Origin: Labilibaculum sp. | Lineage (GTDB): Bacteria; Bacteroidota; Bacteroidia; Bacteroidales; Marinifilaceae | Assembly (NCBI RefSeq): GCF_963664555.1 | Contig: NZ_OY761461.1 | Coordinates: 3,511,769-3,575,768 of the forward strand | Direction: 5' to 3' | DNA length: 64,000 nt | Shown here: in pieces, positions 1-14,295 of the stretch | How positions within the stretch are numbered: the stretch's first letter is position 1 | How the letters are laid out: every line of letters begins with the position of its first letter | Notes under the pieces: generated by a model | What the model saw: the letters and a program-made list of their open reading frames with translations, nothing else | Databases searched by the model: none | What the model was told of the DNA's origin: nothing | Position numbers and translations under genes: made by a program

Positions 1-231
1 TCGTATTCCCTACTCCTGATTGCTTACGGCATCTGGAAGAATAAAAAACATGTGCGGATTGGTGCAATTGGATTATTTGCACTTACATTGGCAAAACTCT
101 TCTTTTACGACATCTCGCATTTGAGTACAATCGCAAAAACCATAGCATTTGTTTTATTGGGAATACTTCTTTTGATTATTTCGTTCCTGTACAACAAATA
201 CAAGAGCAATATGACTGAGGAAGAAATCTAA
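1..231 (+). CDS. 3' end of a DUF2339-like multi-pass membrane protein (partial, starts before window)
   Basis: Frame 1 is open from base 1 to TAA at 229-231: SYSLLLIAYGIWKNKKHVRIGAIGLFALTLAKLFFYDISHLSTIAKTIAFVLLGILLLIISFLYNKY. This resembles the DUF2339 C-terminus (KLFxxD...F..LG.LLL..S.LY), and the family usually precedes DUF3999. Confidence 0.75.
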   Translation, partial: SYSLLLIAYGIWKNKKHVRIGAIGLFALTLAKLFFYDISHLSTIAKTIAFVLLGILLLIISFLYNKYKSNMTEEEI

Positions 232-256
232 AACAAAAAACACAATTTATTTTTAG

Positions 257-1534
257 TTGGTTTCGCTTAAATATTCTATTAAACTTACTCTCATGAAAAA
301 TAAGGCCTGTTTCATACTATTGCTTTTTGCATTTACCAATTCCTTTGGCCAGCAGAATAATTTCAACTTCAAAAGAGAAATTATTGGTACAAATGATCAA
401 TGGCACAAACTGGAACTACCGAATGAAATTCTAGCGAAGCTTTCCCCGAACCTGAACGATATCAGAATCACAGGTGTTTCTGAGCAAAATGACACGCTTG
501 AAGCACCCTACATTATACATTCCACCGAAGATCAAATAAAAAATGTAAATGTTGACTTTAAATTATTGAATCAATCGAGGGATAAAAACGGCTATTACTT
601 CACCTTTAAAGTTCCCACCTCAAATTCAATAAATCAGATTCAGTTGAATTTTGAACAAGAGAATTTCGACTGGAAAACAAGTCTTGAAGGAAGTCAGGAT
701 CAACAAAATTGGTATACTCTTGTCGAGGATTACAGAATACTATCCATTAACAATGCACACACCAATTATCAGTTTTCGAAACTTAATTTCCCGAATGCCA
801 ATTATTCTTTTTACAGAATAGGAATTAAAAGCGCAGAAAAACCGAAGCTGAAAAGTGCAGCATTATCTCTTACAGAGATTGTAAAAGGAAAGTCGCGTAA
901 TTACAAAATAAAGAAAATAAACACCTTTGAAAACAAAAAGCTTCAACAGACTGAGGTAGACATTGATCTGGAATCACCCGTTTTGATAAATGATCTTAAA
1001 ATCAACATTCGTGAATCGTTTGATTATTACAGGCCGGTTCACATTCAGTATGTAACGGATAGTACCCAAACCGAACAGGGATGGAAATACAACTATCAAA
1101 CCCTTGCTTCGGGCACGCTCAACTCCATCGAAAAAAATAAGTTTAAATTCAATAACACCCTGGCTCAGCATGTAAAAATCATCATCAAAAATTCGGACAA
1201 TGAGGCGCTTAGCATTAGCAATATTGAAATAGAAGGCTCTATTTATGAGTTAGTGGTTCGGTTTTCGAAACCCGCCAAATATTTCCTGATCTATGGAAAC
1301 AGCGATGCACGAAAACCACATTATGACATCTCCCGATTTTCAGACAACATCCCCCAATCAATCACAACACTTGCCCTTGGTGATGAAGAAATAATTACAA
1401 AATCCGAATCGCCTAAAGCGGAACCCCTTTTTGCCGATGAAAAATGGTTGTGGGCGGTTATGGCTCTCATCATACTAATTCTTGGAGGCTTCACTCTAAA
1501 AATGATGAAAAAAACGGACGAAAGAGAAGTTTAA
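257..1534 (+). CDS. DUF3999-like exported protein with C-terminal membrane anchor (likely start ATG 293)
   Basis: Signal peptide MKNKACFILLLFAFTNSFG, beta-rich body, 'P.YDI..F' motif, C-terminal TM helix WLWAVMALIILILGGFTLKMMKK. Confidence 0.7.
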   Translation: MVSLKYSIKLTLMKNKACFILLLFAFTNSFGQQNNFNFKREIIGTNDQWHKLELPNEILAKLSPNLNDIRITGVSEQNDTLEAPYIIHSTEDQIKNVNVDFKLLNQSRDKNGYYFTFKVPTSNSINQIQLNFEQENFDWKTSLEGSQDQQNWYTLVEDYRILSINNAHTNYQFSKLNFPNANYSFYRIGIKSAEKPKLKSAALSLTEIVKGKSRNYKIKKINTFENKKLQQTEVDIDLESPVLINDLKINIRESFDYYRPVHIQYVTDSTQTEQGWKYNYQTLASGTLNSIEKNKFKFNNTLAQHVKIIIKNSDNEALSISNIEIEGSIYELVVRFSKPAKYFLIYGNSDARKPHYDISRFSDNIPQSITTLALGDEEIITKSESPKAEPLFADEKWLWAVMALIILILGGFTLKMMKKTDEREV

Positions 1535-1889
1535 ATTTCACTTGCCCGCAAATCTTTTTGTGCTTTTCTGCAAAAAAATAAGCTCCTTCCCTAGCTGTTC
1601 ATTCAAAACACAACGGTTTACTCATTTTTTTCTGAAAGCAAACTTTACTTCCGGTATTTTTTGCTAATCTGTTTGCTTTTCATAACTTCGGAAACGCTTT
1701 TGCTTTACCTGAGTAGGAAATAAACTCTCCTGCAAAACAAGACTTGCATTTTCAGTGAAAAACAGAGAGTTTCCATCTCAAAAACAGAAGCCTGCAACAA
1801 ACAACCGATAAGTAATTTAAAGAGCTTAGCACTTTGCTGATATTATTGTGTTTCAGGCAAAGCCAACGCACGAAGAAAAATAATATACA

Positions 1890-4800
1890 ATGATAGAAAT
1901 ACCAAAACCACTTATAGAACAAATAAAGGAAGGAAATGTAGTACTTTTTCTAGGGGCTGGTGCCTTAAAAGGAGCAATCCATAAAGATGGAAAAGATGCG
2001 CCATCTGGTCCTCAATTAGCAGAATTAATAGCAAATAAATTCTTAGAAGAAGGCTTATCAGATTCTTCTTTACAAATGGTTTCTGAAATCGCCATGTCGG
2101 AAACTAGTCTTTATCTGGTCCAAAAGTTTATAGCTGACTTTTTTGATGGTTTTGAACCTAATGATTTTCATAAAAAAATACCACTATATAGATGGCAGAC
2201 GATTGTTACCACAAACTATGACCTTGTTATAGAAAAGGCATATAGTCAATGTGATAATCCTAAACAAACACAAGTCAAATTTGTACGTGATGAACGAATT
2301 AATGACAAACTTAAAACGGTCAATGACCTACCTTTTATAAAATTGCATGGTTGTATTACTATAATTAATGATCCAGGGTTGCCGTTAATATTAACCACAG
2401 ACCAGTATGTAACTCATAAAAAAAATAGGACTCGACTTTTTGAGAGAATTAATGACTTAGCTAGGCAATACACCTTTTTATTTGTAGGACATAGTTTAGA
2501 AGATAGTGATATTCGGGAAGTACTCCTTAATTTGGGCAATGATTTAACAGCTCGAATGAGATCGTATATTGTTACTCCAGATGTTAAACCTGCATTGGAA
2601 AGATATTGGGGAACAAAAAAAATCACAACATTAAGTTGTCGCTTTTCAGAATTTATGGATGAACTAGAGAAAAAAATTGATACAAACTCTATACCCGATG
2701 GAAACTCATTAAATATTCATGCTAATAGTGGTCATCCTGTACTGCAAAAATTATTTAACTCTTCACGTAAACCAAGTGAGATTCTAATAAATTTCATATC
2801 TAACGATATAATATACCCTAAAAAATCTCATCTCCAATTTGAGCCAATTTTAGCTAATGAGTTTTATAAAGGTAATGTCAATAGTTTTGCCCCAATTGCA
2901 GAAGAGTTTGATGTGAGGCGCCAAATAGAAAGTGGAATACTTTCTGAAGTATTTGTTGATGTTGGTAAAGAAGATTTTAGCATCCATGTATATAGTATTC
3001 TTGGACACGCAGGTTCTGGTAAAACAGTTTTTCTAAATAGGCTAGCATGGGAAGTGGTTAATACTCTAAATAAAAACTGCTATATTCTAAAGAAAGATAT
3101 TCTTTTAGATGCCGACGCTGTTCTTGAACTATACTCTTTATTAAAGGAACGCATTTATTTGATAGTAGATAATGCAAATTATAATGAAGTTGAACTCAAC
3201 AACTTAATTGAGCGAGCCAAAAAAGATAATGTTCCGTTAACCATTCTGACAGCTGAAAGAACAAACATATGGAATGTCGAATGTGGTAGAATTAAAAATC
3301 ACGTAGAGCATTCTTATCGTTTACAATATTTAAGTGAAAAAGAAATTGATGATTTACTTGATTTACTCGATATGAATAATTGTCTAAATCATCTAAAAGG
3401 AAAATCTAGAGAACACCAGCGAAAGGAGTTTGGTGAACAGGCAGGTCGTGAACTCTTAGTTGCACTATATGAAGCAACACAAGGAAAATCTTTTCAGGAA
3501 ATTGTTTACGATGAATATCAGTCCATCCCAGATGAACAAGCTAAAAGTATTTATTTAACAATCTGTTTACTACATAGTTTAGGCTCGTACACAAGAGCGG
3601 GGTTATTATCGCGTGTTCACAGCGTAAATTTCGACGATTTTAAAACGAAATTCTTTGCCCCACTTGAGTATTTAGTATTTAGTAGACGAGATTATTATAT
3701 TAATGATTTTGTTTACGAAGCACGACACCAACTAATAGCTGAATTTGTTGTCAATAATGTTTTATCAAATGAGCAACTGCGTTATGATGAGTATATCAAG
3801 CTATTAAATAACCTTGATATCGATTATGATTCTGATAGGAAAGTATTTTTGTTTTTAACAAATGCAAAAAAACTGCTTAGATTTTTCAAGTCGCCTGATA
3901 AAATTAGAAGGATATATGAAATGGCTAAAGAACAAAGTTATGAGGATGCCAAATTATATCAACAAGAAGCTATTTTTGAAATGGAAAGTAATGGAGGTAG
4001 TATTGATAAGGCTGAAAAACTTCTATATAAAGCAGATGAACTAACTGATAACAAAGATCCTTTAATTAGACATTCATTATCAGAGCTTCTTTTTACTAAA
4101 GCAAGTAATGCAAAAACAAGTCTAGAACGTAAAAAATTGCTCAATGAAGTAGATAAACTGTGTCAAAGTCTAATAAAAAAACGAAACTTTTCTGCCCATC
4201 CTTTTCATACTGCAATAAAATCAAAACTACTTTTAATAAGTGATTATATAGAGAATTCTGAAACATTTGCTCTTGAAAAGTTAATTAAAGAAACAGAGAG
4301 TTTAATATCACTAGCGATTCAACAATTTCCTGATGAACCACATATTATAGAAGCAGAATCTCATTTTAATACATTGATAAATAATGAACCAAAGGCACTT
4401 TCTTTATTAGAAAAAGCATTTGAGGTCAATAAAAATAGCCCATATCTATCTAAACGTTTAGCTTCTGTCTATGAATCAAATGACAGTCTAGATAAAGCAA
4501 TCTCAACAGTTAAGGCAACTTTAAATACAAATGCTGGCGATAGAGATTTGAATTTTAAACTCGCACTTCTATTAATCAAAAAAGACGAAGAAAATGAATT
4601 ACCAAATATCAAGCATCATCTTCGTAGAAGCTTTTCGCCAAAGGATAATAGATATCATGCTCAATTTTGGTATGCTCGGGCTTTATATTTATCAGATGAG
4701 ATACCTGATTCCCAAAAATCTTTTGATTTATTGAAATCAGCCAATTTAGACCCTAAAATAAAAACTAAACTTAGAGGTTTTATCAAAGACAACGATAATT

Positions 4801-5033
4801 TAAAAATCTTTAAAGGTGAGATTTATAATTTACACTCAAACTATGGATTTATAAAGCGAGATGGATTAGGTGATACAATTTACTTCTTTATGCATGCATC
4901 AGCATTACCAGATGATGAACAAGTCGATTTTGCAGATAATTTGTTTGACAATTTAAGGCGTGGGGCAAGAGTTGAGTTTAATTTGGGATTTAACTATAGA
5001 GGTCCTATAGCAGTTAATCTAAAGCCTGAATAG
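1890..5033 (+). CDS. SIR2-like NADase + STAND P-loop NTPase + TPR + C-terminal cold-shock (OB) domain protein; AVAST type 5 (Avs5)-like antiphage candidate
   Basis: SIR2_2 motifs VLFLGAG, TTNYD, KLHG, FVGHSLED. Walker A GHAGSGKT (3003-3026), Walker B IYLIVDNA, winged-helix motif RHQLIAE. Helical TPR-like region. C-terminal RNP1/RNP2-like YGFI...FFMH and VEF...GPIAVNL. Confidence 0.85.
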   Translation: MIEIPKPLIEQIKEGNVVLFLGAGALKGAIHKDGKDAPSGPQLAELIANKFLEEGLSDSSLQMVSEIAMSETSLYLVQKFIADFFDGFEPNDFHKKIPLYRWQTIVTTNYDLVIEKAYSQCDNPKQTQVKFVRDERINDKLKTVNDLPFIKLHGCITIINDPGLPLILTTDQYVTHKKNRTRLFERINDLARQYTFLFVGHSLEDSDIREVLLNLGNDLTARMRSYIVTPDVKPALERYWGTKKITTLSCRFSEFMDELEKKIDTNSIPDGNSLNIHANSGHPVLQKLFNSSRKPSEILINFISNDIIYPKKSHLQFEPILANEFYKGNVNSFAPIAEEFDVRRQIESGILSEVFVDVGKEDFSIHVYSILGHAGSGKTVFLNRLAWEVVNTLNKNCYILKKDILLDADAVLELYSLLKERIYLIVDNANYNEVELNNLIERAKKDNVPLTILTAERTNIWNVECGRIKNHVEHSYRLQYLSEKEIDDLLDLLDMNNCLNHLKGKSREHQRKEFGEQAGRELLVALYEATQGKSFQEIVYDEYQSIPDEQAKSIYLTICLLHSLGSYTRAGLLSRVHSVNFDDFKTKFFAPLEYLVFSRRDYYINDFVYEARHQLIAEFVVNNVLSNEQLRYDEYIKLLNNLDIDYDSDRKVFLFLTNAKKLLRFFKSPDKIRRIYEMAKEQSYEDAKLYQQEAIFEMESNGGSIDKAEKLLYKADELTDNKDPLIRHSLSELLFTKASNAKTSLERKKLLNEVDKLCQSLIKKRNFSAHPFHTAIKSKLLLISDYIENSETFALEKLIKETESLISLAIQQFPDEPHIIEAESHFNTLINNEPKALSLLEKAFEVNKNSPYLSKRLASVYESNDSLDKAISTVKATLNTNAGDRDLNFKLALLLIKKDEENELPNIKHHLRRSFSPKDNRYHAQFWYARALYLSDEIPDSQKSFDLLKSANLDPKIKTKLRGFIKDNDNLKIFKGEIYNLHSNYGFIKRDGLGDTIYFFMHASALPDDEQVDFADNLFDNLRRGARVEFNLGFNYRGPIAVNLKPE

Positions 5034-5273
5034 CCATACACATTAAGTAAACACACAAATCAACCCTTCATCCAAATTTGCTAAAGTACATGTCCCACAA
5101 ACATATGGACAGACTGAGTGGGTAAAGCACGAAAACCTAATCAAGGAAACTGCCCCGCCAGCGATTACTGGCGGGGAAAACCTCTCACTCCAGACACTTC
5201 GCAGGCTCAGCATGAACCAATCGGGACTCGCATACCGAGCTTCGTCAAACAGAAGAAATAAATGCCTCACACC

Positions 5274-5301
5274 AAAGACCACCCCAAGTGGTCTTTTTTT
5301 T
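5274..5301 (+). terminator. Rho-independent terminator downstream of the SIR2-STAND gene
   Basis: Stem AAAGACCAC / GTGGTCTTT with loop CCCAA, running into a T tract. Confidence 0.75.
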
Positions 5302-5509
5302 ATGCCCCACTATCCCCTCAAACCCCCCATTTAACAATACTTCCCACACATACACACAGTCTCATTTCAAACAGCCCAGTACACATACTAAACATTTTAT
5401 TTTTATTATCCATTTTTATTGTTTACTTTCAATACCGACTTACAACTCAACACAAACTTATTGAGCTGCAATACGAATTCAATGAGCCTAAGGAAAGAAA
5501 AACAATAAA

Positions 5510-6502
5510 ATGACCGAAAACACAAACAGTTTCAACCCAATACATATCGACAATTTCGATAAACCGGAGGTAGCACCTCCACCAAGAAACATCAATACAA
5601 ATCCGCTCGATTTTTCATCAAATACAGCTGTAGCAGACCTTCAGCAACTCGAAGAAATACAAAAGCAACCCGAAGAAGAACACAATCAACCGGAAGATGT
5701 GCAGGAGCAACGCGAAGCAATGCTTGAGCAACGGGAAGAAGAGCTTGGGAAAGCAGAAGAAATGCATGAGAAGGTTGAAGATGTGCTAAATCAATCAGAA
5801 GAACCCCCACAACTAATATCAACAAATAAAACAAAATCCAAAATGACATCAAGAAGAAAAGGATCCGAAACCGACACCCTCGAACAATACAGAGTGGCGC
5901 TGACAAATGTAGAACAACAACAGGAAATTGCTGCTGCAATGACCGGATTCGGTTACGATACGGCTGCCATAGCCGAAGGCAAACTATTGTATGAAAATAT
6001 GCGAAAAGCTTACGACCTCAACAAACAGGAAGACAACGAAACACTTGAGAGTAAAATCAATCTCGATGCAATCACCGAAACTGTTGCTGAAGATTATTCG
6101 CTGGATCGTAAAAAAGCAAAAGTAATTTTCAGAAACGATCCTCTTGTTTTGCATAAATTAGCCCTATCAGGTGCTGCACCCAAAGCCTATATCAAATGGG
6201 TCGAATGCATGAAAACATTCTACAATGGGCTTGCTGCAGAACCAGAATTAATCACTAAACTTTCAAAATTAAAATTTAGTGCCGAAGACGCAGAATCCCG
6301 ACTTGCAAACATACAAGAATTAGAATCTGCACGTTCGCAGTATTTAAAAGAAGCTGGTGAATCGCAGGAAGCAACAAAAGCAAAAGATACAGCCTTTGCC
6401 GAAGTAGACAAATGGATGAGTGATTTTTATGCCGTGGCAAAAATCGCCATGGAAGACAAACCTCAGTTATTGGAATCACTTGGCCTTTTGGTACGTAACT
6501 AA
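5510..6502 (+). CDS. Hypothetical all-alpha protein with an acidic low-complexity N-terminus (alternative start ATG 5843)
   Basis: 330-aa ORF. The first ~110 aa are P/E/Q-rich; the rest is an amphipathic helical domain ending ESQEATKAKD.AF..VDKWMSDFYAVAKIAMEDKPQLLESLG. A terminator follows. Confidence 0.75.
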   Translation: MTENTNSFNPIHIDNFDKPEVAPPPRNINTNPLDFSSNTAVADLQQLEEIQKQPEEEHNQPEDVQEQREAMLEQREEELGKAEEMHEKVEDVLNQSEEPPQLISTNKTKSKMTSRRKGSETDTLEQYRVALTNVEQQQEIAAAMTGFGYDTAAIAEGKLLYENMRKAYDLNKQEDNETLESKINLDAITETVAEDYSLDRKKAKVIFRNDPLVLHKLALSGAAPKAYIKWVECMKTFYNGLAAEPELITKLSKLKFSAEDAESRLANIQELESARSQYLKEAGESQEATKAKDTAFAEVDKWMSDFYAVAKIAMEDKPQLLESLGLLVRN

Positions 6503-6536
6503 TACCCTTTTTAACTACATACAACTAAACTGGATT

Positions 6537-6568
6537 CAAAACCCATATTCATCTGAGTATGGGTTTTG
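6537..6568 (+). terminator. Terminator hairpin
   Basis: CAAAACCCATATTC-ATCT-GAGTATGGGTTTTG directly after the 5510..6502 ORF. Confidence 0.7.
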
Positions 6569-6908
6569 TTCTGCAATTGTAATATCTCTGCTGCCGCATT
6601 AGAAAAAAACAATCTGAATTGCAGTAATCGGGAAGTTGAGAACTTGTCCTTAGTTTGTATACTATAAGTTTAATAAAACCAAAATAAATAAGAAGTAAAA
6701 GAGCGCACCACCCCGACATTCAAAAATTTGTTGGTCCCCATAGATGAAGAGGACGATAAGAACAAAATTCCATGAGAGAGGAACGAACGAATATTATTTT
6801 GTTCCGTCATCAAATCGTGATGGGTAACAAAATTTTTGCCGTCTAGTCTTTTTGATTCTTTTGTGATAATGACAAAAGAATAGCCCGTCCGGCTTGAGGA
6901 CACAAAAA

Positions 6909-7391: not shown

Positions 7392-8148
7392 CTTCTATTC
7401 TTAAACCATCCGGATACTCAATTTTGGCGAGAAACAAGCCATGACCAGGCACCGAAGAACCTGCATTCGATCGGTTCTTGCTTTCAATCACCTCACGAAA
7501 ACCAGCCAAATCCATTTTTCCCCGTCCAACTTCAATCAAAGTCCCAACAATGGCACGAACCATATTACGAAGAAAGCGGTCGGCCTTAATCGTGAATACC
7601 AGTTCATCATCCGTCTCCATCCATTCAGCTATCGATATCCTGCAGTTGTTTGTTTTTACATCTGTATGCAATTTACTAAAGCTTGTAAAATCGATGTATT
7701 CGAACAGAATTTTTGCCGCCTCGTTCATTTTCGAAACATTCAGCTCATGCTGATTTTTCCAATGCGACTCCATTCGAAACGGATTTTTATGCTTGGTAAT
7801 TTTATAATGATAAGTTCTGGAAACGGCATCGAAACGGGTATGTGCATCAGATTTCACCCGAAACACTTCACGAATGGCAATGTCATGAGGCAAAAAACGG
7901 TTCAGTTTAAAAGCCAACTTTCCGCAGTCGAACCGACAGTTTTCATCCACCTCGAAATGAGCCATAAAATCGCTGGCATGCACACCTGTATCCGTTCTTC
8001 CGCAGCCAACCACATTTATTGGCTGATTTAAAATAGTAGACAAGGCCTTATTTAACTCCTCCTGAACAGAACTGGCATTCGGCTGAATCTGCCAACCATG
8101 ATAGTTTGTTCCTTTATAACTTAGGCGAATAAAATATCGTTTCTTCAA
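7384..8148 (-). CDS. truA: tRNA pseudouridine(38-40) synthase (start placed at TTG 8148; ORF track extends to 8235)
   Basis: YKGTNYHGWQIQ, GCGRTDTGVHA (catalytic Asp), ADRFLRNMVRAIVGTL, GHGLFL. Confidence 0.95.
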   Translation of the reverse strand: MKKRYFIRLSYKGTNYHGWQIQPNASSVQEELNKALSTILNQPINVVGCGRTDTGVHASDFMAHFEVDENCRFDCGKLAFKLNRFLPHDIAIREVFRVKSDAHTRFDAVSRTYHYKITKHKNPFRMESHWKNQHELNVSKMNEAAKILFEYIDFTSFSKLHTDVKTNNCRISIAEWMETDDELVFTIKADRFLRNMVRAIVGTLIEVGRGKMDLAGFREVIESKNRSNAGSSVPGHGLFLAKIEYPDGLRIEDE

Positions 8149-8174
8149 TTCAAATAGTATTTTCTGATTCTCCC

Positions 8175-8182
8175 CAAAAGTA
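8175..8182 (-). promoter_or_regulatory. Bacteroidota -7 promoter box for truA
   Basis: TACTTTTG on the minus strand matches TAnnTTTG, about 27 nt upstream of the TTG start. Confidence 0.55.
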
Positions 8183-8291
8183 AGCATTTTTACCAAGCCC
8201 AAAAATGAAAGAACTAAGGAAAAAAGAGAACACACTTTCTACTATTAGACAATAACTGCTAAGACTAGTCAATTAGGAATTAGCTTTGACA

Positions 8292-8326
8292 CTTTATTCT
8301 TGTAACTTTATACTTTACACTTGTTC
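8292..8326. repeat. Degenerate heptamer tandem repeat
   Basis: CTTTATT CTTGTAA CTTTATA CTTTACA CTTGTTC in the divergent truA/moxR intergenic region. Confidence 0.6.
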
Positions 8327-8393
8327 CCAGGAGTCTCCCAAAACCATTAACAATTTTTAACGGGCATGCATTTTCATAAAACACTCAAAGGTT

Positions 8394-8401
8394 TATCTTT
8401 G
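8394..8401 (+). promoter_or_regulatory. Bacteroidota -7 promoter box for the moxR-bat operon
   Basis: TATCTTTG matches TAnnTTTG, about 65 nt upstream of the moxR ATG. Confidence 0.55.
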
Positions 8402-8466
8402 TAAAGGTTTTCTGAAAAATCAGATTCTTTTTATGTAAATTTTTCAAGTAATTAAATATATTTCTA

Positions 8467-9462
8467 ATGATCCAAACAGTTGATATCAAAGAACTAAATG
8501 AACGCATCCAAAGAGAAAGTTCCTTTGTGGATATGATTTCTATGGAAATGAACAAAGTTATTGTTGGTCAAAAGCACCTTGTTGAAAGCTTATTGATAGG
8601 ATTACTTTCGAATGGTCATATATTACTGGAAGGGGTTCCCGGACTGGCAAAAACACTTGCAATCAGCACACTTGCAACTACCATAGAAGCTGAATTTAGC
8701 CGTATTCAGTTTACTCCTGACCTGTTGCCTGCCGATTTGTTGGGTACCATGATTTACAGTCAGAAAAAAGAAGAATTTGTAGTAAAAAAAGGACCTCTTT
8801 TCGCCAACTTTATTCTTGCTGATGAGATCAACCGTGCCCCGGCAAAAGTACAGGCTGCCTTATTGGAAGCCATGCAGGAGCGTCAAATCACCATCGGCGA
8901 CACCACCTATAAATTAAAAGAACCGTTTTTGGTTATGGCCACTCAAAATCCGATTGAGCAGGAAGGAACTTATCCTCTGCCGGAAGCACAGGTGGACCGT
9001 TTTATGCTGAAAGTGGTGATCAATTACCCTAAAAAAGATGAAGAGCAGCTAATTATGCGTCAGAATCTTTTGAAGGTATTTCCAAAAGCCGCTCAAATCT
9101 TAAAACCGGAAGACATTAATAAAGCACGTGATGTGGTTAAAGATGTTTACATGGATGAAAAGATTGAAAAATACATTGTAGACATCATTTTTGCAACCCG
9201 TTTCCCTGCCGATTACGGATTGGAGCAATTCAAGGATATGATCGCATTTGGCGGATCGCCCCGTGCCAGTATCAGTTTGGCCGCTGCAGCAAAAGCTTAT
9301 GCCTTTATTAAACGCAGAGGTTATGTAATTCCTGAAGATATCCGTGCCGTTTGTCATGACGTACTGCGTCACAGAATTGGATTGACATATGAAGCTGAGG
9401 CAAACAATATCACCAGTGAGAACATCATTAGTGAAATCCTGAATACTGTTGAAGTGCCATAG
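8467..9462 (+). CDS. moxR: MoxR family AAA+ ATPase of the Bat operon
   Basis: Walker A GVPGLAKT, RIQFTPDLLPAD, Walker B LADEINRA, ATQNPIEQEGTYPLPEAQVDRF, SPRA. Confidence 0.95.
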   Translation: MIQTVDIKELNERIQRESSFVDMISMEMNKVIVGQKHLVESLLIGLLSNGHILLEGVPGLAKTLAISTLATTIEAEFSRIQFTPDLLPADLLGTMIYSQKKEEFVVKKGPLFANFILADEINRAPAKVQAALLEAMQERQITIGDTTYKLKEPFLVMATQNPIEQEGTYPLPEAQVDRFMLKVVINYPKKDEEQLIMRQNLLKVFPKAAQILKPEDINKARDVVKDVYMDEKIEKYIVDIIFATRFPADYGLEQFKDMIAFGGSPRASISLAAAAKAYAFIKRRGYVIPEDIRAVCHDVLRHRIGLTYEAEANNITSENIISEILNTVEVP

Positions 9463-9508
9463 TAATTATCAATTAGTAATTGTTAATTAATAATTATTCA
9501 TTCGTAAT
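9460..9508. repeat. Degenerate heptamer tandem repeat (TnnnAAT x7)
   Basis: TAGTAAT TATCAAT TAGTAAT TGTTAAT TAATAAT TATTCAT TCGTAAT fills the moxR-DUF58 spacer. Confidence 0.65.
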
Positions 9509-9514
9509 TAAACT

Positions 9515-10384
9515 ATGGAAACTAGTGAATTATTAAAACGAGTTAGGCAAATAGAGATCAAAACCAGAGGTCTTTCCCGAAATATTTTTGCCGGGGAGTA
9601 TCATTCTGCGTTCAAAGGACGTGGTATGACCTTCAGCGAAGTTCGGGAATACCAATATGGTGATGATATTCGAAATATTGACTGGAATGTAACCGCCCGC
9701 TACAATCAACCTTACGTTAAACTTTTCGAAGAAGAACGTGAGTTGACCGTAATGCTTCTGATTGACGTGAGTGGTTCCCGTGAATTTGGAACCGTCTCTA
9801 AACTAAAGAAAAATCAGATTACGGAGATTGCTGCCGTACTGGCCTTTTCGGCCATTCAAAACAACGATAAAATTGGGGTGATCTTCTTTTCGGATAAAAT
9901 TGAAAAGTTTATTCCACCTAAAAAAGGTAAATCTCATATTCTGAGAATCATTCGTGAACTAATCGATTTTAAACCCGAACATCGGAATACTGATATCGGC
10001 AATGCTTTACGATACCTTACACAGGTTATTAAAAAACGCTGCACCACTTTCGTGATATCAGATTTTATTGATGATGATTTTGAAAATGCATTGACGATTG
10101 CCAACAAAAAACATGATCTTGTAGCCCTTAACATATACGATAAACGCGAACAGGAAATCCCTTCAATTGGCTTGATTAAAATTAAGGATGCGGAAACAGG
10201 CGAATACAGCTGGATAGATACTTCGAATAAAAAGGTACGGGAAAACTACGCCAAATGGTGGAGTGATAAAGACAATTTACTTGCCGAAACATTTAAAAAA
10301 TCGGGGGTAGATGTGGCGAATATTCGAACCGATCAGGATTACGTGAGATCCTTAATTGCCTTATTTAAACGAAGAGGACACTAA
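9515..10384 (+). CDS. DUF58 domain protein (vWA-like)
   Basis: FKGRGMTFSEVREYQYGDDIRNIDWNVTAR, MIDAS-like LIDVSGS, ISDF; directly after moxR. Confidence 0.92.
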   Translation: METSELLKRVRQIEIKTRGLSRNIFAGEYHSAFKGRGMTFSEVREYQYGDDIRNIDWNVTARYNQPYVKLFEEERELTVMLLIDVSGSREFGTVSKLKKNQITEIAAVLAFSAIQNNDKIGVIFFSDKIEKFIPPKKGKSHILRIIRELIDFKPEHRNTDIGNALRYLTQVIKKRCTTFVISDFIDDDFENALTIANKKHDLVALNIYDKREQEIPSIGLIKIKDAETGEYSWIDTSNKKVRENYAKWWSDKDNLLAETFKKSGVDVANIRTDQDYVRSLIALFKRRGH

Positions 10385-10403
10385 TTTTTAGAAGCAGACG
10401 ACT

Positions 10404-11435
10404 ATGACAAATAGAATTATCATCCCAAGTAAACCATTCGCAAAAGCAATATTCGCATTTGTAATTGTATTGGGAGCTACTTTTTCCTCCTTCTCGTCAT
10501 ATGCTCAAGAGGAAGACAAAGGCCTTAACTACAGTGCTCAACTCGACACCAATCTTATTGTTATTGGTGATCAAATAAACCTTTTGCTTTCCATCGAACA
10601 GCCAAAAGGTCTTCGGGTAGAGTTTCCTGTATTTACGGACAGCATTAGTTCGGGAGTAGAGATTGTCAAACAATCTCCTCAGGATACTATCTCATTAGAG
10701 AATGGAAATATTAAAGTGAATAAAAACTTTTTGATTACCTCTTTTGATGATGGTGTTCACAAAATGAATCCTTTTGAATTCAAAATTCATGACGAAAATC
10801 TGATGAATATCATTAGAACCGACACAATGCTTTTGGGTGTAAAAACTTTCGAAATTGATACGAGCAAAGCCAATTTCGACATTGTAATGCCAATACATAC
10901 TCCAATTGCTTTTGCGGAAATTGCTCCCTGGGCTTTTGGCGGACTGCTGCTTGCAGCATTAATTGTTTTATTGATTTTATACCTGCGCAAGCGAAAGAAA
11001 AACCAGCCTTTATTCGTAAAAGTAAAACCAGCCGAACCGGCTCATGTTATTGCCTTACGCAAGTTGGATGAAATCAAAAAACAAAAGCTTTGGGAAACCG
11101 GAAAGGTGAAACAGTTTCATTCTGACCTTACGGATACAATCCGGTATTATTTGGATGAACGTTTCCAACTATCAACTTTGGAATCAACCACCGATGAGAT
11201 ATTGAAAGCAGTTAATACTGTGGAGGTAAATTCAGACTGGCATGCCAAACTAAAGGAAGTTCTTGAACGCGCGGATTTAGCCAAATTCGCTAAATTCACT
11301 CCTCTTCAGGATGAAAATGAACTAAGCTTAAAATATGCTTACAAAATTATTGAGACCACCATTGTAGAAGAGGCTCCTGCTAAAGAGGAAAAAGAATCTA
11401 TTGCACTGGAAGAAACAAAAAAGGAAGATAAGTAA
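10404..11435 (+). CDS. Conserved Bat-operon membrane protein (between DUF58 and batA)
   Basis: Signal peptide, beta-rich domain, one TM helix (WAFGGLLLAALIVLLILYLRKRKK), cytoplasmic tail with ESTTDE and ADLAKFAK. Confidence 0.8.
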   Translation: MTNRIIIPSKPFAKAIFAFVIVLGATFSSFSSYAQEEDKGLNYSAQLDTNLIVIGDQINLLLSIEQPKGLRVEFPVFTDSISSGVEIVKQSPQDTISLENGNIKVNKNFLITSFDDGVHKMNPFEFKIHDENLMNIIRTDTMLLGVKTFEIDTSKANFDIVMPIHTPIAFAEIAPWAFGGLLLAALIVLLILYLRKRKKNQPLFVKVKPAEPAHVIALRKLDEIKKQKLWETGKVKQFHSDLTDTIRYYLDERFQLSTLESTTDEILKAVNTVEVNSDWHAKLKEVLERADLAKFAKFTPLQDENELSLKYAYKIIETTIVEEAPAKEEKESIALEETKKEDK

Positions 11436-11438
11436 ACT

Positions 11439-12446
11439 TTGAAAATACAAAGTATGAGTTCTATACAATTTGCAAATCCTGAATATTTTTACTTGCTGAT
11501 CCTTTTGATACCATTAATAGCATGGTACATCTTAAAGGACAAGAATGCGCATGCAAGTATTCAGGTGTCAACATTAAAAGGCTTTCATTCAAGCACCAAA
11601 ACCTACAAATACTACTTGCGGCATGCTTTATTTGTATTTCGTGTTTTAGCAATTGTATTTTTAGTACTTGCTATTGCCCGACCACAATCAAGTAATAGCC
11701 GAAGAGATGTAACCACAGAAGGAATTGACATCGTTATGTCGCTTGATATTTCGAGCAGTATGCTTGCCCGTGATTTTGAACCAGACAGACTGGAAGCGGC
11801 AAAAGATGTTGCTGTGAGCTTTATTACTGGCCGCGAAGATGATAAAATTGGATTGGTAATTTTTAGCGGCGAGAGTTTCACTCAATGTCCTTTAACAACC
11901 GATCATGCTGTTTTAATCAACCTTTTCAACGACATCCAAAGTGGAATGATTGAAGATGGTACTGCAATCGGACTTGGATTAGCCAATGCCGTTAATCGTT
12001 TAAAGGAAAGTAAATCGAAATCGAAAGTAGTTATTCTCTTAACCGATGGTGTAAATAATCAAGGAGAAATTGCTCCTATCACGGCTGCCGAATTAGCAAA
12101 AACTTTTGGCATAAGAGTTTACACAATTGGTATCGGAACCATGGGAATGGCTCCCTATCCTATTCAAACTGCTTTTGGTATCAGCATGAGAAACATGCCG
12201 GTAAAAATTGACGAAGAAGTATTGCAGCAAATTGCAGAAATGACTGGCGGTCAATACTTCAGGGCAACCGACAACAATAAACTAAAAGCAATTTACGAAC
12301 AAATTGACAAGTTGGAGAAAAGTAAAATTGAGGTGAAAGAATACATTACAAAAAGCGAGGAATACTTAATTTTTGCGTTGTTGGCTACTTTATTTTTACT
12401 GCTTGAAATTGCTTTGCGTAATTCAATATTGCGGAATATTCCGTAA
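11439..12446 (+). CDS. batA: BatA vWA domain protein (likely start ATG 11454)
   Basis: N-terminal FANPEYFYLLILL, LAIARPQ, MIDAS DISSSM, GTAIGLGL, ILLTDGVNN, C-terminal TM. Confidence 0.9.
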   Translation: MKIQSMSSIQFANPEYFYLLILLIPLIAWYILKDKNAHASIQVSTLKGFHSSTKTYKYYLRHALFVFRVLAIVFLVLAIARPQSSNSRRDVTTEGIDIVMSLDISSSMLARDFEPDRLEAAKDVAVSFITGREDDKIGLVIFSGESFTQCPLTTDHAVLINLFNDIQSGMIEDGTAIGLGLANAVNRLKESKSKSKVVILLTDGVNNQGEIAPITAAELAKTFGIRVYTIGIGTMGMAPYPIQTAFGISMRNMPVKIDEEVLQQIAEMTGGQYFRATDNNKLKAIYEQIDKLEKSKIEVKEYITKSEEYLIFALLATLFLLLEIALRNSILRNIP

Positions 12447-12480: not shown

Positions 12481-13518
12481 ATGAATCAATTTCGTCTTGA
12501 TCATCCCGATCTTCTATATTTATTTCTAATTCTTCCAATTCTTGGAATTTTATATTGGATTAGTTATTCAAGAAAAAAGAAGGCTCTTGCTGAATTTGGT
12601 GAGATGAATATTATCTCCCAGCTTATGCCTTACGCTTCATTTACCCGACCGTTTTATAAGTTTGGAATTCTCTTGCTGGCTTTAAGTTTTATCATTTTTG
12701 GTCTTGCAGGACCTCAATTCGGTTCAAAACTCCAAACCATAAAAAGAAAAGGAGTAGAAATTATCATTGCGCTGGATGTATCCAATTCGATGATGGCACA
12801 AGACATTCAACCCAATAGATTGGAACGGGCAAAACGAGCAGTTTCCAAAATGGTTGACAAATTGAATAATGATAAAATCGGTTTGGTGGTTTTTGCCGGC
12901 GAGGCATATACTCAATTGCCGATTACAACAGATTATGCATCTGCAAAATTGTTCTTGTCCTCAATCAGTACTGATATTGTTCCCATACAAGGAACTGCAA
13001 TTGGTGCGGCAATAAACTTGGCGGCAAAAAGTTTTACTCCCGATAGTGAGGCCAGCAAAGCAATAATTGTAATTACCGATGGTGAAAACCATGAGGATGA
13101 TGCAATTTCGGCGGCAAAAGCAGCATTCGATCAAGGAATTATAGTACATACTATTGCCATGGGATTACCGGAAGGTGCACCAATACCTGTAAGCAGTGGT
13201 TCCCGGGATTTCAGACGGGATGAAAAAGGGAACATTGTAATTTCAAAATTAGATCAGCAAATGGTTGAGCAGATTGCTACAGCCGGAGGAGGAAAACCAG
13301 TGATAGCCAACAATACAACAACTGGATTAAATGCACTTTTTAATGAAATTAATAAAATGAACAAAACGGAATTAGAGCAGAGAGTATATGCTGCCTACGA
13401 CGAAAAATTCCAATTGTTTATTGCCATCGGATTGCTGCTGCTCTTTCTTGAATTCTTAGTTCTGGAACGTAAAAATCGCTATTTGAAGGATATCAATTTG
13501 TTTAAACCATCGAAATAG
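12481..13518 (+). CDS. batB: BatB vWA domain protein
   Basis: LAGPQFG, DVSNSM, PITTDY, GTAIGAAI, ITDGENHE; follows batA. Confidence 0.9.
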   Translation: MNQFRLDHPDLLYLFLILPILGILYWISYSRKKKALAEFGEMNIISQLMPYASFTRPFYKFGILLLALSFIIFGLAGPQFGSKLQTIKRKGVEIIIALDVSNSMMAQDIQPNRLERAKRAVSKMVDKLNNDKIGLVVFAGEAYTQLPITTDYASAKLFLSSISTDIVPIQGTAIGAAINLAAKSFTPDSEASKAIIVITDGENHEDDAISAAKAAFDQGIIVHTIAMGLPEGAPIPVSSGSRDFRRDEKGNIVISKLDQQMVEQIATAGGGKPVIANNTTTGLNALFNEINKMNKTELEQRVYAAYDEKFQLFIAIGLLLLFLEFLVLERKNRYLKDINLFKPSK

Positions 13519-13536
13519 AACTCAATTCTGATTATT

Positions 13537-14295
13537 ATGAACAAATATATAGCATTATTCATCGGCTTGCTTTGCCTCTTTAGTTTGGATGCATTAGCAC
13601 AAAAGGAAAGAAAATTTATCCGTAAGGGAAATGGCCTGTTTGAAGGAAATGAATATGAAAACTCTGAAGTTGAATACCGAAAGGCTCTCGATAAAAAAAT
13701 CAATTCGTATGAAGCTGGTTTTAATTTGGGAGATGCCTTGTACAAACAAAAGAAATACGATGAAGCCTTGAAACAATTCCAGACTTTAACAGTGGCTGAA
13801 CAGGATCCTAAAAAACTCGGGGAAATTTACCACAACATTGGAAACACTCTTCTAATGAACCGGAAAATTGATGAAAGTATTGAGGCATACAAAGAATCCC
13901 TTCGTAACTTCCCAAATTCAAAAGAAACCAAATACAATTTGGAATATGCCCGAAAAATGAAACAAAAAGAGGAAGAGGAGAAAAAGAAACAGGATCAAAA
14001 CAAGGATCAGGACAAGAAAAACCAGGACAAGAAAGATCAGGATAAAAAAGATCAGGATAAAAAAGACCAGGACAAAAAAGATCAGAAAGATCAGAAAGAT
14101 CAGAAAAATAAACCTGAAGATCAGGATAAAAAGAAAGGTGATCCTGAAGAACAGCAAAATAAAATATCCGAACAGGATGCCAAGCGCTTGTTGGAAGCTC
14201 TTGAAAATGATGAAAAAAAGGTTCAGGAAAAGGTGCAAAAAGCCAAAGCTGTTGCTCAAAAAGCAAAAAGAACCAAAATCAAAAAGGATTGGTAA
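13537..14295 (+). CDS. batC: BatC TPR protein with a Q/D/K-rich linker
   Basis: Signal peptide, TPRs (YHNIGN, YKESLR), QDKKD repeats, C-terminal KDW. Confidence 0.88.
   Translation: MNKYIALFIGLLCLFSLDALAQKERKFIRKGNGLFEGNEYENSEVEYRKALDKKINSYEAGFNLGDALYKQKKYDEALKQFQTLTVAEQDPKKLGEIYHNIGNTLLMNRKIDESIEAYKESLRNFPNSKETKYNLEYARKMKQKEEEEKKKQDQNKDQDKKNQDKKDQDKKDQDKKDQDKKDQKDQKDQKNKPEDQDKKKGDPEEQQNKISEQDAKRLLEALENDEKKVQEKVQKAKAVAQKAKRTKIKKDW
13989..14152 (+). repeat. Coding 15-bp and 9-bp tandem repeats (QDKKD, DQK) inside batC
   Basis: Repeated CAGGAYAARAARGAY units followed by GATCAGAAA x3. Confidence 0.8.

Follow-up and report, generated by a model that had tools for sequence, protein, structure and literature searches.

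A gene that stands by itself among housekeeping genes, and whose product joins a SIR2 domain, a STAND nucleotide-binding module, tetratricopeptide repeats (TPRs) and a terminal cold-shock domain (CSD), raises two questions: is its product an immune receptor, and what is the CSD for? The gene lies at positions 1,890 to 5,033 of a 64,000-nucleotide stretch of Labilibaculum sp. (contig NZ_OY761461.1, positions 3,511,769 to 3,575,768), hereafter ‘the window’. An initial annotation, made from the letters alone, had described it as a probably horizontally acquired, single-gene antiphage candidate resembling NLR (nucleotide-binding, leucine-rich repeat) receptors, of AVAST type 5 (Avs5), with an additional nucleic-acid-binding domain and a domain combination possibly not described before. 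Here, we find that the CSD is genuine and shared by a very large family, that this family is probably the closest relative of the Avs5 (SIR2-STAND) defense proteins, and that the gene likely encodes a single-protein, NLR-like anti-phage abortive-infection system.

Domain architecture and conservation

The open reading frame (ORF) begins with ATG and encodes 1047 amino acids. Pfam matched SIR2_2 at residues 104–247 (E = 2.3e-21) and nSTAND_NTPase5 (PF25199, hereafter nSTAND5) at residues 324–466 (E = 1.6e-23; 83.6 bits against a gathering cut-off of 34), the latter also above threshold in every sampled relative. TPR_19 was matched at residues 835–885 with 25.0 bits, i.e., at its cut-off, TPR_14 was likewise matched, and the family profile matched consensus TPR proteins. 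An AlphaFold2 (AF2) model built on an alignment of 70 homologs (mean pLDDT 83.5, pTM 0.71) arranges, from the N- to the C-terminus, an alpha/beta SIR2 domain, a P-loop domain, a helical domain (HD), a winged-helix domain (WHD), TPR-like helices and a beta-barrel. Helices at 483–588 precede a beta-hairpin (596–611) that lies ahead of the RH helix (614–624), and ~19 consecutive TPR-like helices lead to the terminal barrel (962–1046). Pfam and the model together bear out the SIR2-STAND-WHD-TPR-CSD order of the initial annotation. Read in this way, the single gene encodes a candidate NLR-like immune protein with SIR2, a putative STAND switch, TPRs and a terminal CSD (coordinates in Table 1).

Conservation was counted in the alignment of 70 full-length homologs, where all the motifs picked out by the initial annotation are present and either invariant or at least 90% conserved. 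This holds for G22 and G24 of the SIR2 motif GAG (residues 22–24), while N109 and D111 of TTNYD and K151, H153 and G154 of KLHG are invariant. Walker A (GHAGSGKT) has invariant G372, G375, G377 and K378, and D427 of Walker B (IYLIVDN) is at least 90% conserved. R612 of the RH..IAE motif is invariant, and H613, I616 and A617 are invariant or at least 90% conserved; we infer that H613 is the equivalent of the sensor histidine of the STAND ‘MHD’ motif. Distant members match the window protein at an identity of 0.49 in SIR2, 0.40 in the nucleotide-binding domain (NBD), 0.51 in HD-WHD, 0.40–0.45 in the TPRs, and 0.43 in the CSD. Conservation is thus uniform along the protein, and the idea that the CSD is its most conserved part was rejected.

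The C-terminal CSD is genuine. The window protein itself scores 25.9 bits against the Pfam CSD model (PF00313, residues 979–1044), just below the 27-bit cut-off, and PF00313 is present in the precomputed Pfam annotation of many homologs. A profile made from the last ~100 residues of 37 family members matched solved CSDs, with E-values of 2e-9 for Unr, 4e-7 for CspLA, and ~1e-6 for CspB, CspE and CspA. Similarly, when a domain-only AF2 model (residues 946–1047, pLDDT 84.4) was compared with the PDB using Foldseek, the top 18 matches were all CSDs, including Unr CSD1, YB-1, CspA and CspE (target-normalized TM-scores 0.48–0.76), so the predicted C-terminal oligonucleotide/oligosaccharide-binding (OB) fold was recovered. 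The modeled barrel is of the five-stranded CSD type (strands 974–981, 985–990, 996–1000, 1027–1035, and 1038–1046), and a CSD was found in 70/70 aligned homologs.

The aromatic residues to which the initial annotation had drawn attention are mostly retained in these homologs. In the RNP1-like YGFI (985–988), Y/F985 is kept in 66/70 and F987 in 67/70; in the RNP2-like IYFF (997–1000), F/Y998 is kept in 69/70, F999 in 46/70, and Y/H/F1000 in 58/70. G976 is invariant, F1030, F1034 and G1038 are nearly invariant, and basic residues near the RNP motifs (R990, R1027, K/R1037) are retained. The domain shares with the cold-shock proteins CspA/B/E, YB-1 and Unr the five-stranded OB barrel, the RNP1-like YGFI and the RNP2-like aromatic strand. 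Unlike free CSD proteins, it terminates a 950-aa immune-type protein, has lost the equivalent of CspB W8, which is aliphatic here (I/V978), and has a long beta3–beta4 loop (1001–1018). The equivalent of CspB F30 is basic (R/K1001), and the clade of the window protein carries a 10-residue insertion in this loop (1005–1014), modeled at low confidence. The match of the window protein to models of the retron Se72 CSD effector and CSD_V is generic (E = 0.02).

The CSD appears to be a fixed, family-wide part of the protein and not, as had been proposed, an extra domain on an Avs5. A whole-protein search recovered hundreds of full-length relatives of 1030–1048 aa, with 42–90% identity and the same Pfam set, from Flavobacterium, Chryseobacterium, Parapedobacter, Mucilaginibacter, Aquimarina, Ignavibacteriaceae, Nitrospirae, Desulfobacterales and Smithella. 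An exhaustive search over representatives of 50%-identity clusters, seeded with residues 300–1047, i.e., the NOD (nucleotide-binding oligomerization domain), the TPRs and the CSD, found no fewer than 416 of them at E ≤ 1e-30, a number that rises to 997 at E ≤ 1e-10. Most are ~1030–1040 aa long, with ~300 N-terminal residues for SIR2, and the phyla covered are Bacteroidota, Desulfobacterota, Nitrospirota and Ignavibacteriota. Within this family, the window instance is an otherwise ordinary member.

Variants include proteins with extra N- or C-terminal extensions. For instance, a relative of 1331 aa (P0146) carries PNP_UDP_1 at 1050–1304, after residues 317–1023 that match the window protein. 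It may be a gene-calling fusion; if the fusion is real, SIR2 and PNP-type domains occur in one protein. PNP is the effector of ‘Avs6’ according to Legrand et al. (PMC12680541). Other relatives (P0154, P0187, P0196 and P0241; 800–841 aa) have nSTAND5 and TPRs, with SIR2 replaced by an N-terminus of 90–120 residues without a Pfam match, which may be another effector or adaptor domain or the product of a truncated gene call; among them, only P0154 has a CSD match.

Relation to Avs5 and to SAMD9-type receptors

The kinship with Avs5 is seen in both structure and profile comparisons. The best PDB matches of the full model are Avs5 filaments (EfAvs5 9JAP, E = 6e-23; 9NC9, E = 4e-16), followed by DSR2, KomC and ThsA through SIR2 only. 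The family profile matched the SIR2 of EfAvs5 (E = 5e-10), and its positions 340–527 align with EfAvs5 362–547, which comprises the NBD and the helical domain (domain E = 3.8e-6). The residues N141, K379 and D426 of EfAvs5 are needed for defense (PMC11897194); by motif and position, the window protein has conserved counterparts of them in N109 of TTNYD, K378 of Walker A and D427 of Walker B. Given to Pfam, the EfAvs5 NBD fragment scores 37.4 bits with nSTAND3 and 34.4 bits with nSTAND5. As the EfAvs5 NBD matches nSTAND3 best and the window NBD matches nSTAND5 best, the two NODs are related and belong to different subfamilies. Between the C-terminal ~400 residues of the family and the C-terminus of EfAvs5, no profile match was found.

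Avs5 proteins (EfAvs5 9JAP, PaAvs5, 9NC9) thus share with the window protein a single polypeptide, SIR2_2, a STAND NOD of NBD, HD and WHD, and a C-terminal helical-repeat sensor, at ~15% identity and with 828–869 aa as against ~1047 aa. The sensor of the window protein comprises ~410 aa of TPRs and CSD, whereas that of characterized Avs5 is short and helical with no CSD described. The EfAvs5 sensor has been termed ‘unusually short’ (PMC11897194), the C-terminal region of PaAvs5-1 is described with helical repeat motifs only, deletions reaching residue 828 abolishing immunity (PMC12931631), and the published descriptions of EfAvs5 and PaAvs5 (PMC11897194, PMC12931631) make no mention of a CSD or OB domain. 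Four Avs5 clades have been described, and PaAvs5 of three clades sense the jumbo-phage protein JADA (PMC12931631); the triggers of characterized Avs5 are T7 gp1.7 and JADA. The characterized proteins are found in Enterobacteria or Pseudomonas, whereas the present family occurs in Bacteroidota and environmental phyla. The type 5 assignment of the initial annotation therefore stands for SIR2 and the NOD, which are homologous to those of EfAvs5, and fails for the sensor. Because the sensor differs and the PADLOC Avs5 model gives no match, membership in the characterized Avs5 clades cannot be demonstrated for the protein, which is better classed with its own large SIR2-nSTAND5-TPR-CSD family, a variant of the Avs5/SAMD9-like kind.

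Other defense proteins are related through SIR2. ThsA (Thoeris), DSR2, SIR2-HerA and KomC share the SIR2_2 fold and catalytic motifs with the window protein (profile E-values 1e-15 to 1e-8; isolated-domain TM-scores ~0.72–0.74). They differ in having SLOG, HEAT-like repeats, a HerA partner or KomB, and none has a STAND NOD or a CSD; no ThsB or HerA gene adjoins the window gene. For the window protein and five relatives, PADLOC v2 similarly returned SIR2-level matches (ThsA, Dsr2, PDC-S25, Aga-SIR2), of which those to ThsA and Dsr2 span the SIR2 part only (residues ~9–250), and a weak match to CSD_V.

The domain combination, which had been thought possibly undescribed, is not new. A SIR2-like domain, a P-loop STAND NTPase, TPRs and an OB domain ‘most similar to cold-shock DNA-binding proteins’ make up, in this order, the published core of SAMD9 and SAMD9L (SAMD9/9L; PMC5445408), an architecture reported in 2017 and 2025 and linked to Avs5, Avs6 and Avs9 (PMC12680541, PMC13581612). 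Compared by published description, the window protein has the same order and thus the layout of the SAMD9 core, headed by a SIR2 that is catalytically complete. The two kinds of protein differ in their N-termini. SAMD9/9L has a SAM domain and an AlbA_2 nuclease effector, and AlbA_2 as the N-terminal effector defines both SAMD9/9L and Avs9; the window protein has neither, with no Pfam match to AlbA_2 along its 1047 aa and SIR2 at the very N-terminus. AlbA_2 and SIR2 are, however, lost in some SAMD9-type members (PMC5445408). All catalytic residues of the window SIR2 are in place, and it presumably acts as the effector, whereas the Sir2-like domain of SAMD9L is thought to be non-enzymatic (bioRxiv 10.64898/2026.02.01.703102). 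Unlike in SAMD9/9L, no helical domain was discerned between the TPRs and the OB barrel of the window protein, and no full-length SAMD9/9L structure is among the top 50 PDB matches listed for the full model.

Legrand et al. named bacterial structural analogs of SAMD9 Avs9 and Avs6; their search was limited to matches extending over 1000 or more residues of a query structure, and they argue that the likeness to SAMD9 is convergence (PMC12680541). They describe a Desulfobacula ‘AVAST type V’ protein, A0A1F9N8W4, that is SAMD9-like in fold and lacks only AlbA_2. This protein did not surface in cluster look-ups or in a Desulfobacterales-seeded search, and its link to the family is plausible, if unverified. 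Along the same lines, Lee et al. found that the Avs5 sensor clusters structurally with SAMD9 (PMC13581612).

A variable slot in Labilibaculum and the settings of relatives

As the initial annotation had it, the gene stands alone among housekeeping genes, in the order DUF3999, SIR2-STAND, hypothetical, RNase H, TruA and MoxR/DUF58/BatA. The flanking proteins have 77–99% identity to their counterparts in three Labilibaculum genomes (Marinifilaceae, Bacteroidota), and in this genus, the DUF3999–RNase H interval forms a slot whose cargo varies. The slot was compared between the window (1535–6908) and three loci (L001, 11264–16547; L002, 6996–9800; L007, 1066–1183). It is empty in L007, where DUF3999 and RNase H are adjacent, ~117 bp apart; it holds a hypothetical gene and an Exo_endo_phos ORF in L002, and an alpha/beta-hydrolase, an AraC regulator, a beta-lactamase-like protein and an XRE-type membrane protein in L001. 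By blastn, homology to L002, which comes from a Labilibaculum metagenome-assembled genome, spans window positions 1–1848 and 5190–6570, and the 3.34 kb in between stand precisely in place of 785 bp of L002 that encode the Exo_endo_phos ORF. A SIR2-STAND homolog was found in 0 of 80 TruA loci. Thus, the gene is not core and syntenic among close Labilibaculum, whose slot is empty or filled with other cargo.

The GC content is 0.317 in the gene, 0.323 in the cassette and 0.361 in the window, which places the gene in the lowest 0.2% of equal-size windows; at third codon positions (GC3), it is 0.198 as against 0.331 ± 0.037 in other long ORFs, i.e., 3.6 standard deviations lower. Owing to the cassette swap in a variable slot and the deviant GC and GC3, we regard the gene as an accessory cassette that was probably acquired recently, in agreement with the AT-richness and the horizontal acquisition suggested at the outset. 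No integrase or flanking repeat that would explain the turnover of the slot was seen (the cassette boundaries are clean against L002, and no further search was made), and the window has no tRNA genes as an integration site.

Relatives of the gene are found near defense genes and on mobile elements. Known defense or toxin–antitoxin genes lie within 10 kb in four of the six homolog loci sampled: HNH, NUDIX, type II restriction–modification (R-M), another STAND-TPR protein and caspase near P0014; Mrr, an integrase fragment, nSTAND1-TPR genes and AbiEii near P0015; a type ISP R-M enzyme and an IS110 element near P0061; and a SocA/Panacea module near P0005. A conserved partner gene was considered and rejected, as the neighbors differ in all seven loci examined; in its absence, the gene is read as a single-gene system. 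Ten IMG/VR contigs encode relatives, of which nine are full length, with 32–37% identity and the CSD included. One relative follows immediately on two integrases within a P4-like element that has capsid E, Ash and D5 primase (L088, 7923–11114), and another sits between lambda-type tail-fiber genes and the integrase of a lambda-like prophage (L096, 8001–11113); both have 33–37% identity and the CSD. Such positions in laboratory phages typically carry accessory or defense cargo. The L096 gene is split into two overlapping ORFs (8001–8747 and 8720–11113), suggesting a frameshift.

Other observations concern the slot and its surroundings. In L001, from Labilibaculum sp. K2S, the cargo includes a second RNase H-like fragment (13504–13623, 65% identity over 40 aa), which suggests a past rearrangement or duplication at the slot. 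The product of the hypothetical gene at 5510–6502 (+) of the window is 330 aa long, rich in Glu/Gln in its N-terminal half and without a Pfam match, and L002 alone shares it with the window (80% identity); since it accompanies a different cassette in L002, it is not tied to the SIR2-STAND gene. A C-rich non-coding stretch 3' of the SIR2-STAND gene (window 5040–5400, GC skew -0.34) contains a strong GC hairpin, and the ORF at 5262–5513 has no family match and looks non-coding. A promoter scan gave counts equal to the shuffled expectation; to our knowledge, the host organisms do not use sigma-70 consensus promoters. All sequencing runs found to contain the sequence are of DNA type. Further downstream, the MoxR-DUF58-BatA (Bat/aerotolerance-type) operon at 8467–12446 encodes proteins that are 84–99% identical across Labilibaculum and Marinifilum (L001–L005).

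Table 1. Coordinates of the gene, its domains and motifs, and the surrounding features (positions in the window)
Feature	Position	Strand	Details
SIR2-nSTAND5-WHD-TPR-CSD protein	1890..5033	+	1047 aa; Pfam, homologs, AF2 model
SIR2_2 effector domain, putative (residues 1-265)	1890..2684	+	Pfam; profile matches to EfAvs5, KomC, ThsA, SIR2-HerA
TTNYD 107-111	2208-2222	+	SIR2 motif
KLHG 151-154	2340-2351	+	SIR2 motif
STAND nucleotide-binding domain (residues 324-466)	2859..3287	+	nSTAND_NTPase5; profile match to EfAvs5
Walker A 372-379	3003-3026	+	GHAGSGKT
Walker B 422-428	3153-3173	+	IYLIVDN
Helical and winged-helix domains (residues 471-640)	3300..3809	+	AF2 secondary structure, conservation
R612-H613 motif	3723-3728	+	conserved in alignment
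TPR-like alpha-helical array (residues 641-955), presumed sensor	3810..4754	+	AF2 model, Pfam, profile
C-terminal CSD (residues 960-1047)	4767..5030	+	Pfam, profile, domain-only AF2, Foldseek
Accessory cassette, 3.34 kb	1849..5189	.	blastn vs L002
Terminator-like hairpin and T-run	5274..5304	+	consensus match only; conserved flank downstream of gene
Strong GC hairpin	5153-5176	-	within C-rich stretch

Function of the protein and of its cold-shock domain

With Avs5 filaments as the best structural matches and relatives in defense islands and in prophage or satellite slots, the single-gene, NLR-like antiphage candidacy put forward by the initial annotation is upheld, and abortive infection is its likely mode. 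In a mechanism whose every step is taken over from relatives (Avs5), the protein would be a closed, nucleotide-bound monomer in the uninfected cell, its NOD kept shut by the C-terminal TPR-CSD module. Binding of a conserved infection cue by this module would open the NOD, and the protein would oligomerize, like Avs5 filaments. The SIR2 domains would thereby be brought together and hydrolyze NAD+, stopping phage and cell.

Several observations weigh against this reading. A literature search found no experimental description of any family member. In the window, no defense genes adjoin the SIR2-STAND gene, and clear defense genes were missing near two of the six homolog loci sampled. Global TM-scores to Avs5 are low (0.28–0.33), as expected from different conformations and sensors, so that the kinship rests on domain-level matches. 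The Avs5 model of PADLOC v2 (PDLC02170) matched neither the window protein nor five relatives; this negative weighs little, since even EfAvs5 is scarcely recognized by this model (27.5 bits for its SIR2, no match for its NOD). The sensor is conserved as much as the enzymatic domains and is not hypervariable, which is unusual for arms-race sensors and compatible with recognition of a conserved fold or of nucleic acid. Finally, the role given to the CSD below is modeled on animal proteins, whose likeness Legrand et al. attribute to convergence.

What would the CSD do in such a receptor? We slightly favor a family-wide regulatory element, i.e., a putative latch on the NOD or SIR2 that also serves as an assembly interface, over a sensor of single-stranded nucleic acid, and the two are not mutually exclusive. 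In the closed SAMD9L monomer, cryo-EM shows the OB domain packed on the NTPase's N-lobe, and in the dimer, it contacts the Sir2-like domain of the partner (bioRxiv 10.64898/2026.02.01.703102); deleting the OB domain of SAMD9 abolishes oligomerization and signaling (PMC12015307). That the OB domain of SAMD9/9L is needed for oligomerization and makes protein–protein contacts speaks against a CSD that is a true ssRNA or ssDNA sensor, whose cue (phage transcripts, ssDNA replication intermediates or degraded RNA) would complement or replace protein recognition by the TPRs. We consider this sensor role rather unlikely, even though the domain is homologous to the nucleic-acid-binding CspA/B/E, YB-1 and Unr, and its retained aromatic platform (985, 987, 998–1000) and basic residues (R990, R1027, K/R1037) mean that it may bind single-stranded nucleic acid. 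The uniform conservation of the C-terminal module would fit nucleic acid or another generic ligand, the SAMD9 OB domain was predicted by Mekhedov et al. to bind RNA (PMC5445408), and retron effectors include CSD proteins, to which NCBIfam and the PADLOC CSD_V model gave weak matches. Weighing on the other side are the aliphatic residue and the R/K at the positions of CspB W8 and F30, the characterized Avs proteins, which sense proteins (PMC13581612, PMC12931631), and a SAMD9 construct without AlbA and OB that, as cited in bioRxiv 10.64898/2026.02.01.703102, is reported still to bind dsDNA.

Two further readings would make the CSD irrelevant or take the protein out of immunity. If the protein were an Avs5 in the narrow sense, sharing the trigger type and filament mechanism of EfAvs5 and PaAvs5, its CSD would have no functional relevance; the best structural and profile matches, the identical order of SIR2, NOD and sensor, and the ‘AVAST type V’ label that Legrand et al. 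gave to the SAMD9-like Desulfobacula protein (PMC12680541) all point this way. We nevertheless judge it improbable. The sensor is ~200 aa longer and ends in the CSD, whereas those of PaAvs5-1 and EfAvs5 are described as helical repeats only and as ‘unusually short’; the C-terminal halves have no profile match, the PADLOC Avs5 model has none either, the NBDs fall best on nSTAND5 and nSTAND3, and core CSD residues are invariant across more than 400 clusters, contrary to irrelevance. Far more remote is a non-immune role in regulation, in which an NAD-dependent deacylase or ADP-ribosyltransferase would link the host's adaptation to stress or cold with ATP state and with RNA binding by the CSD, as the database names of relatives (‘SIR2 family NAD-dependent protein deacylase’ or ‘cold shock CspA family protein’), the housekeeping neighbors in the window and the lack of a hypervariable sensor might suggest. 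Against this, the SIR2 of the window protein is of the SIR2_2/ThsA type, and every solved relative matched is a defense NADase; the distribution of the gene is patchy, with cassette exchange among close relatives, homologs reside on a prophage, on a satellite-like element and in defense islands, and STAND with SIR2 has no known housekeeping precedent in bacteria. An anti-phage receptor is the reading that we prefer, with a slight preference for the CSD as latch and assembly surface.

SIR2-STAND (Avs5) defense is established, but for short-sensor proteobacterial clades only. The SIR2-nSTAND5-TPR-CSD branch is much larger, crosses phyla, is experimentally uncharacterized and is not recognized as a defense system by PADLOC v2; it pairs an intact SIR2 catalytic set with the TPR-OB tail typical of human SAMD9/SAMD9L. 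Should the CSD prove to be a working sensor of single-stranded nucleic acid, which we think unlikely, the family would provide the first bacterial STAND/NLR-type immune receptor gated by a nucleic-acid cue, whether by itself or jointly with a TPR-bound protein, and would make the role of the SAMD9/SAMD9L OB domain tractable in a bacterial model. If active, the branch would be a new defense family for Bacteroidota and a simple bacterial system in which to follow the OB domain of SAMD9-type receptors as latch, assembly surface or nucleic-acid sensor, receptors that matter medically through their implication in human bone-marrow-failure syndromes.

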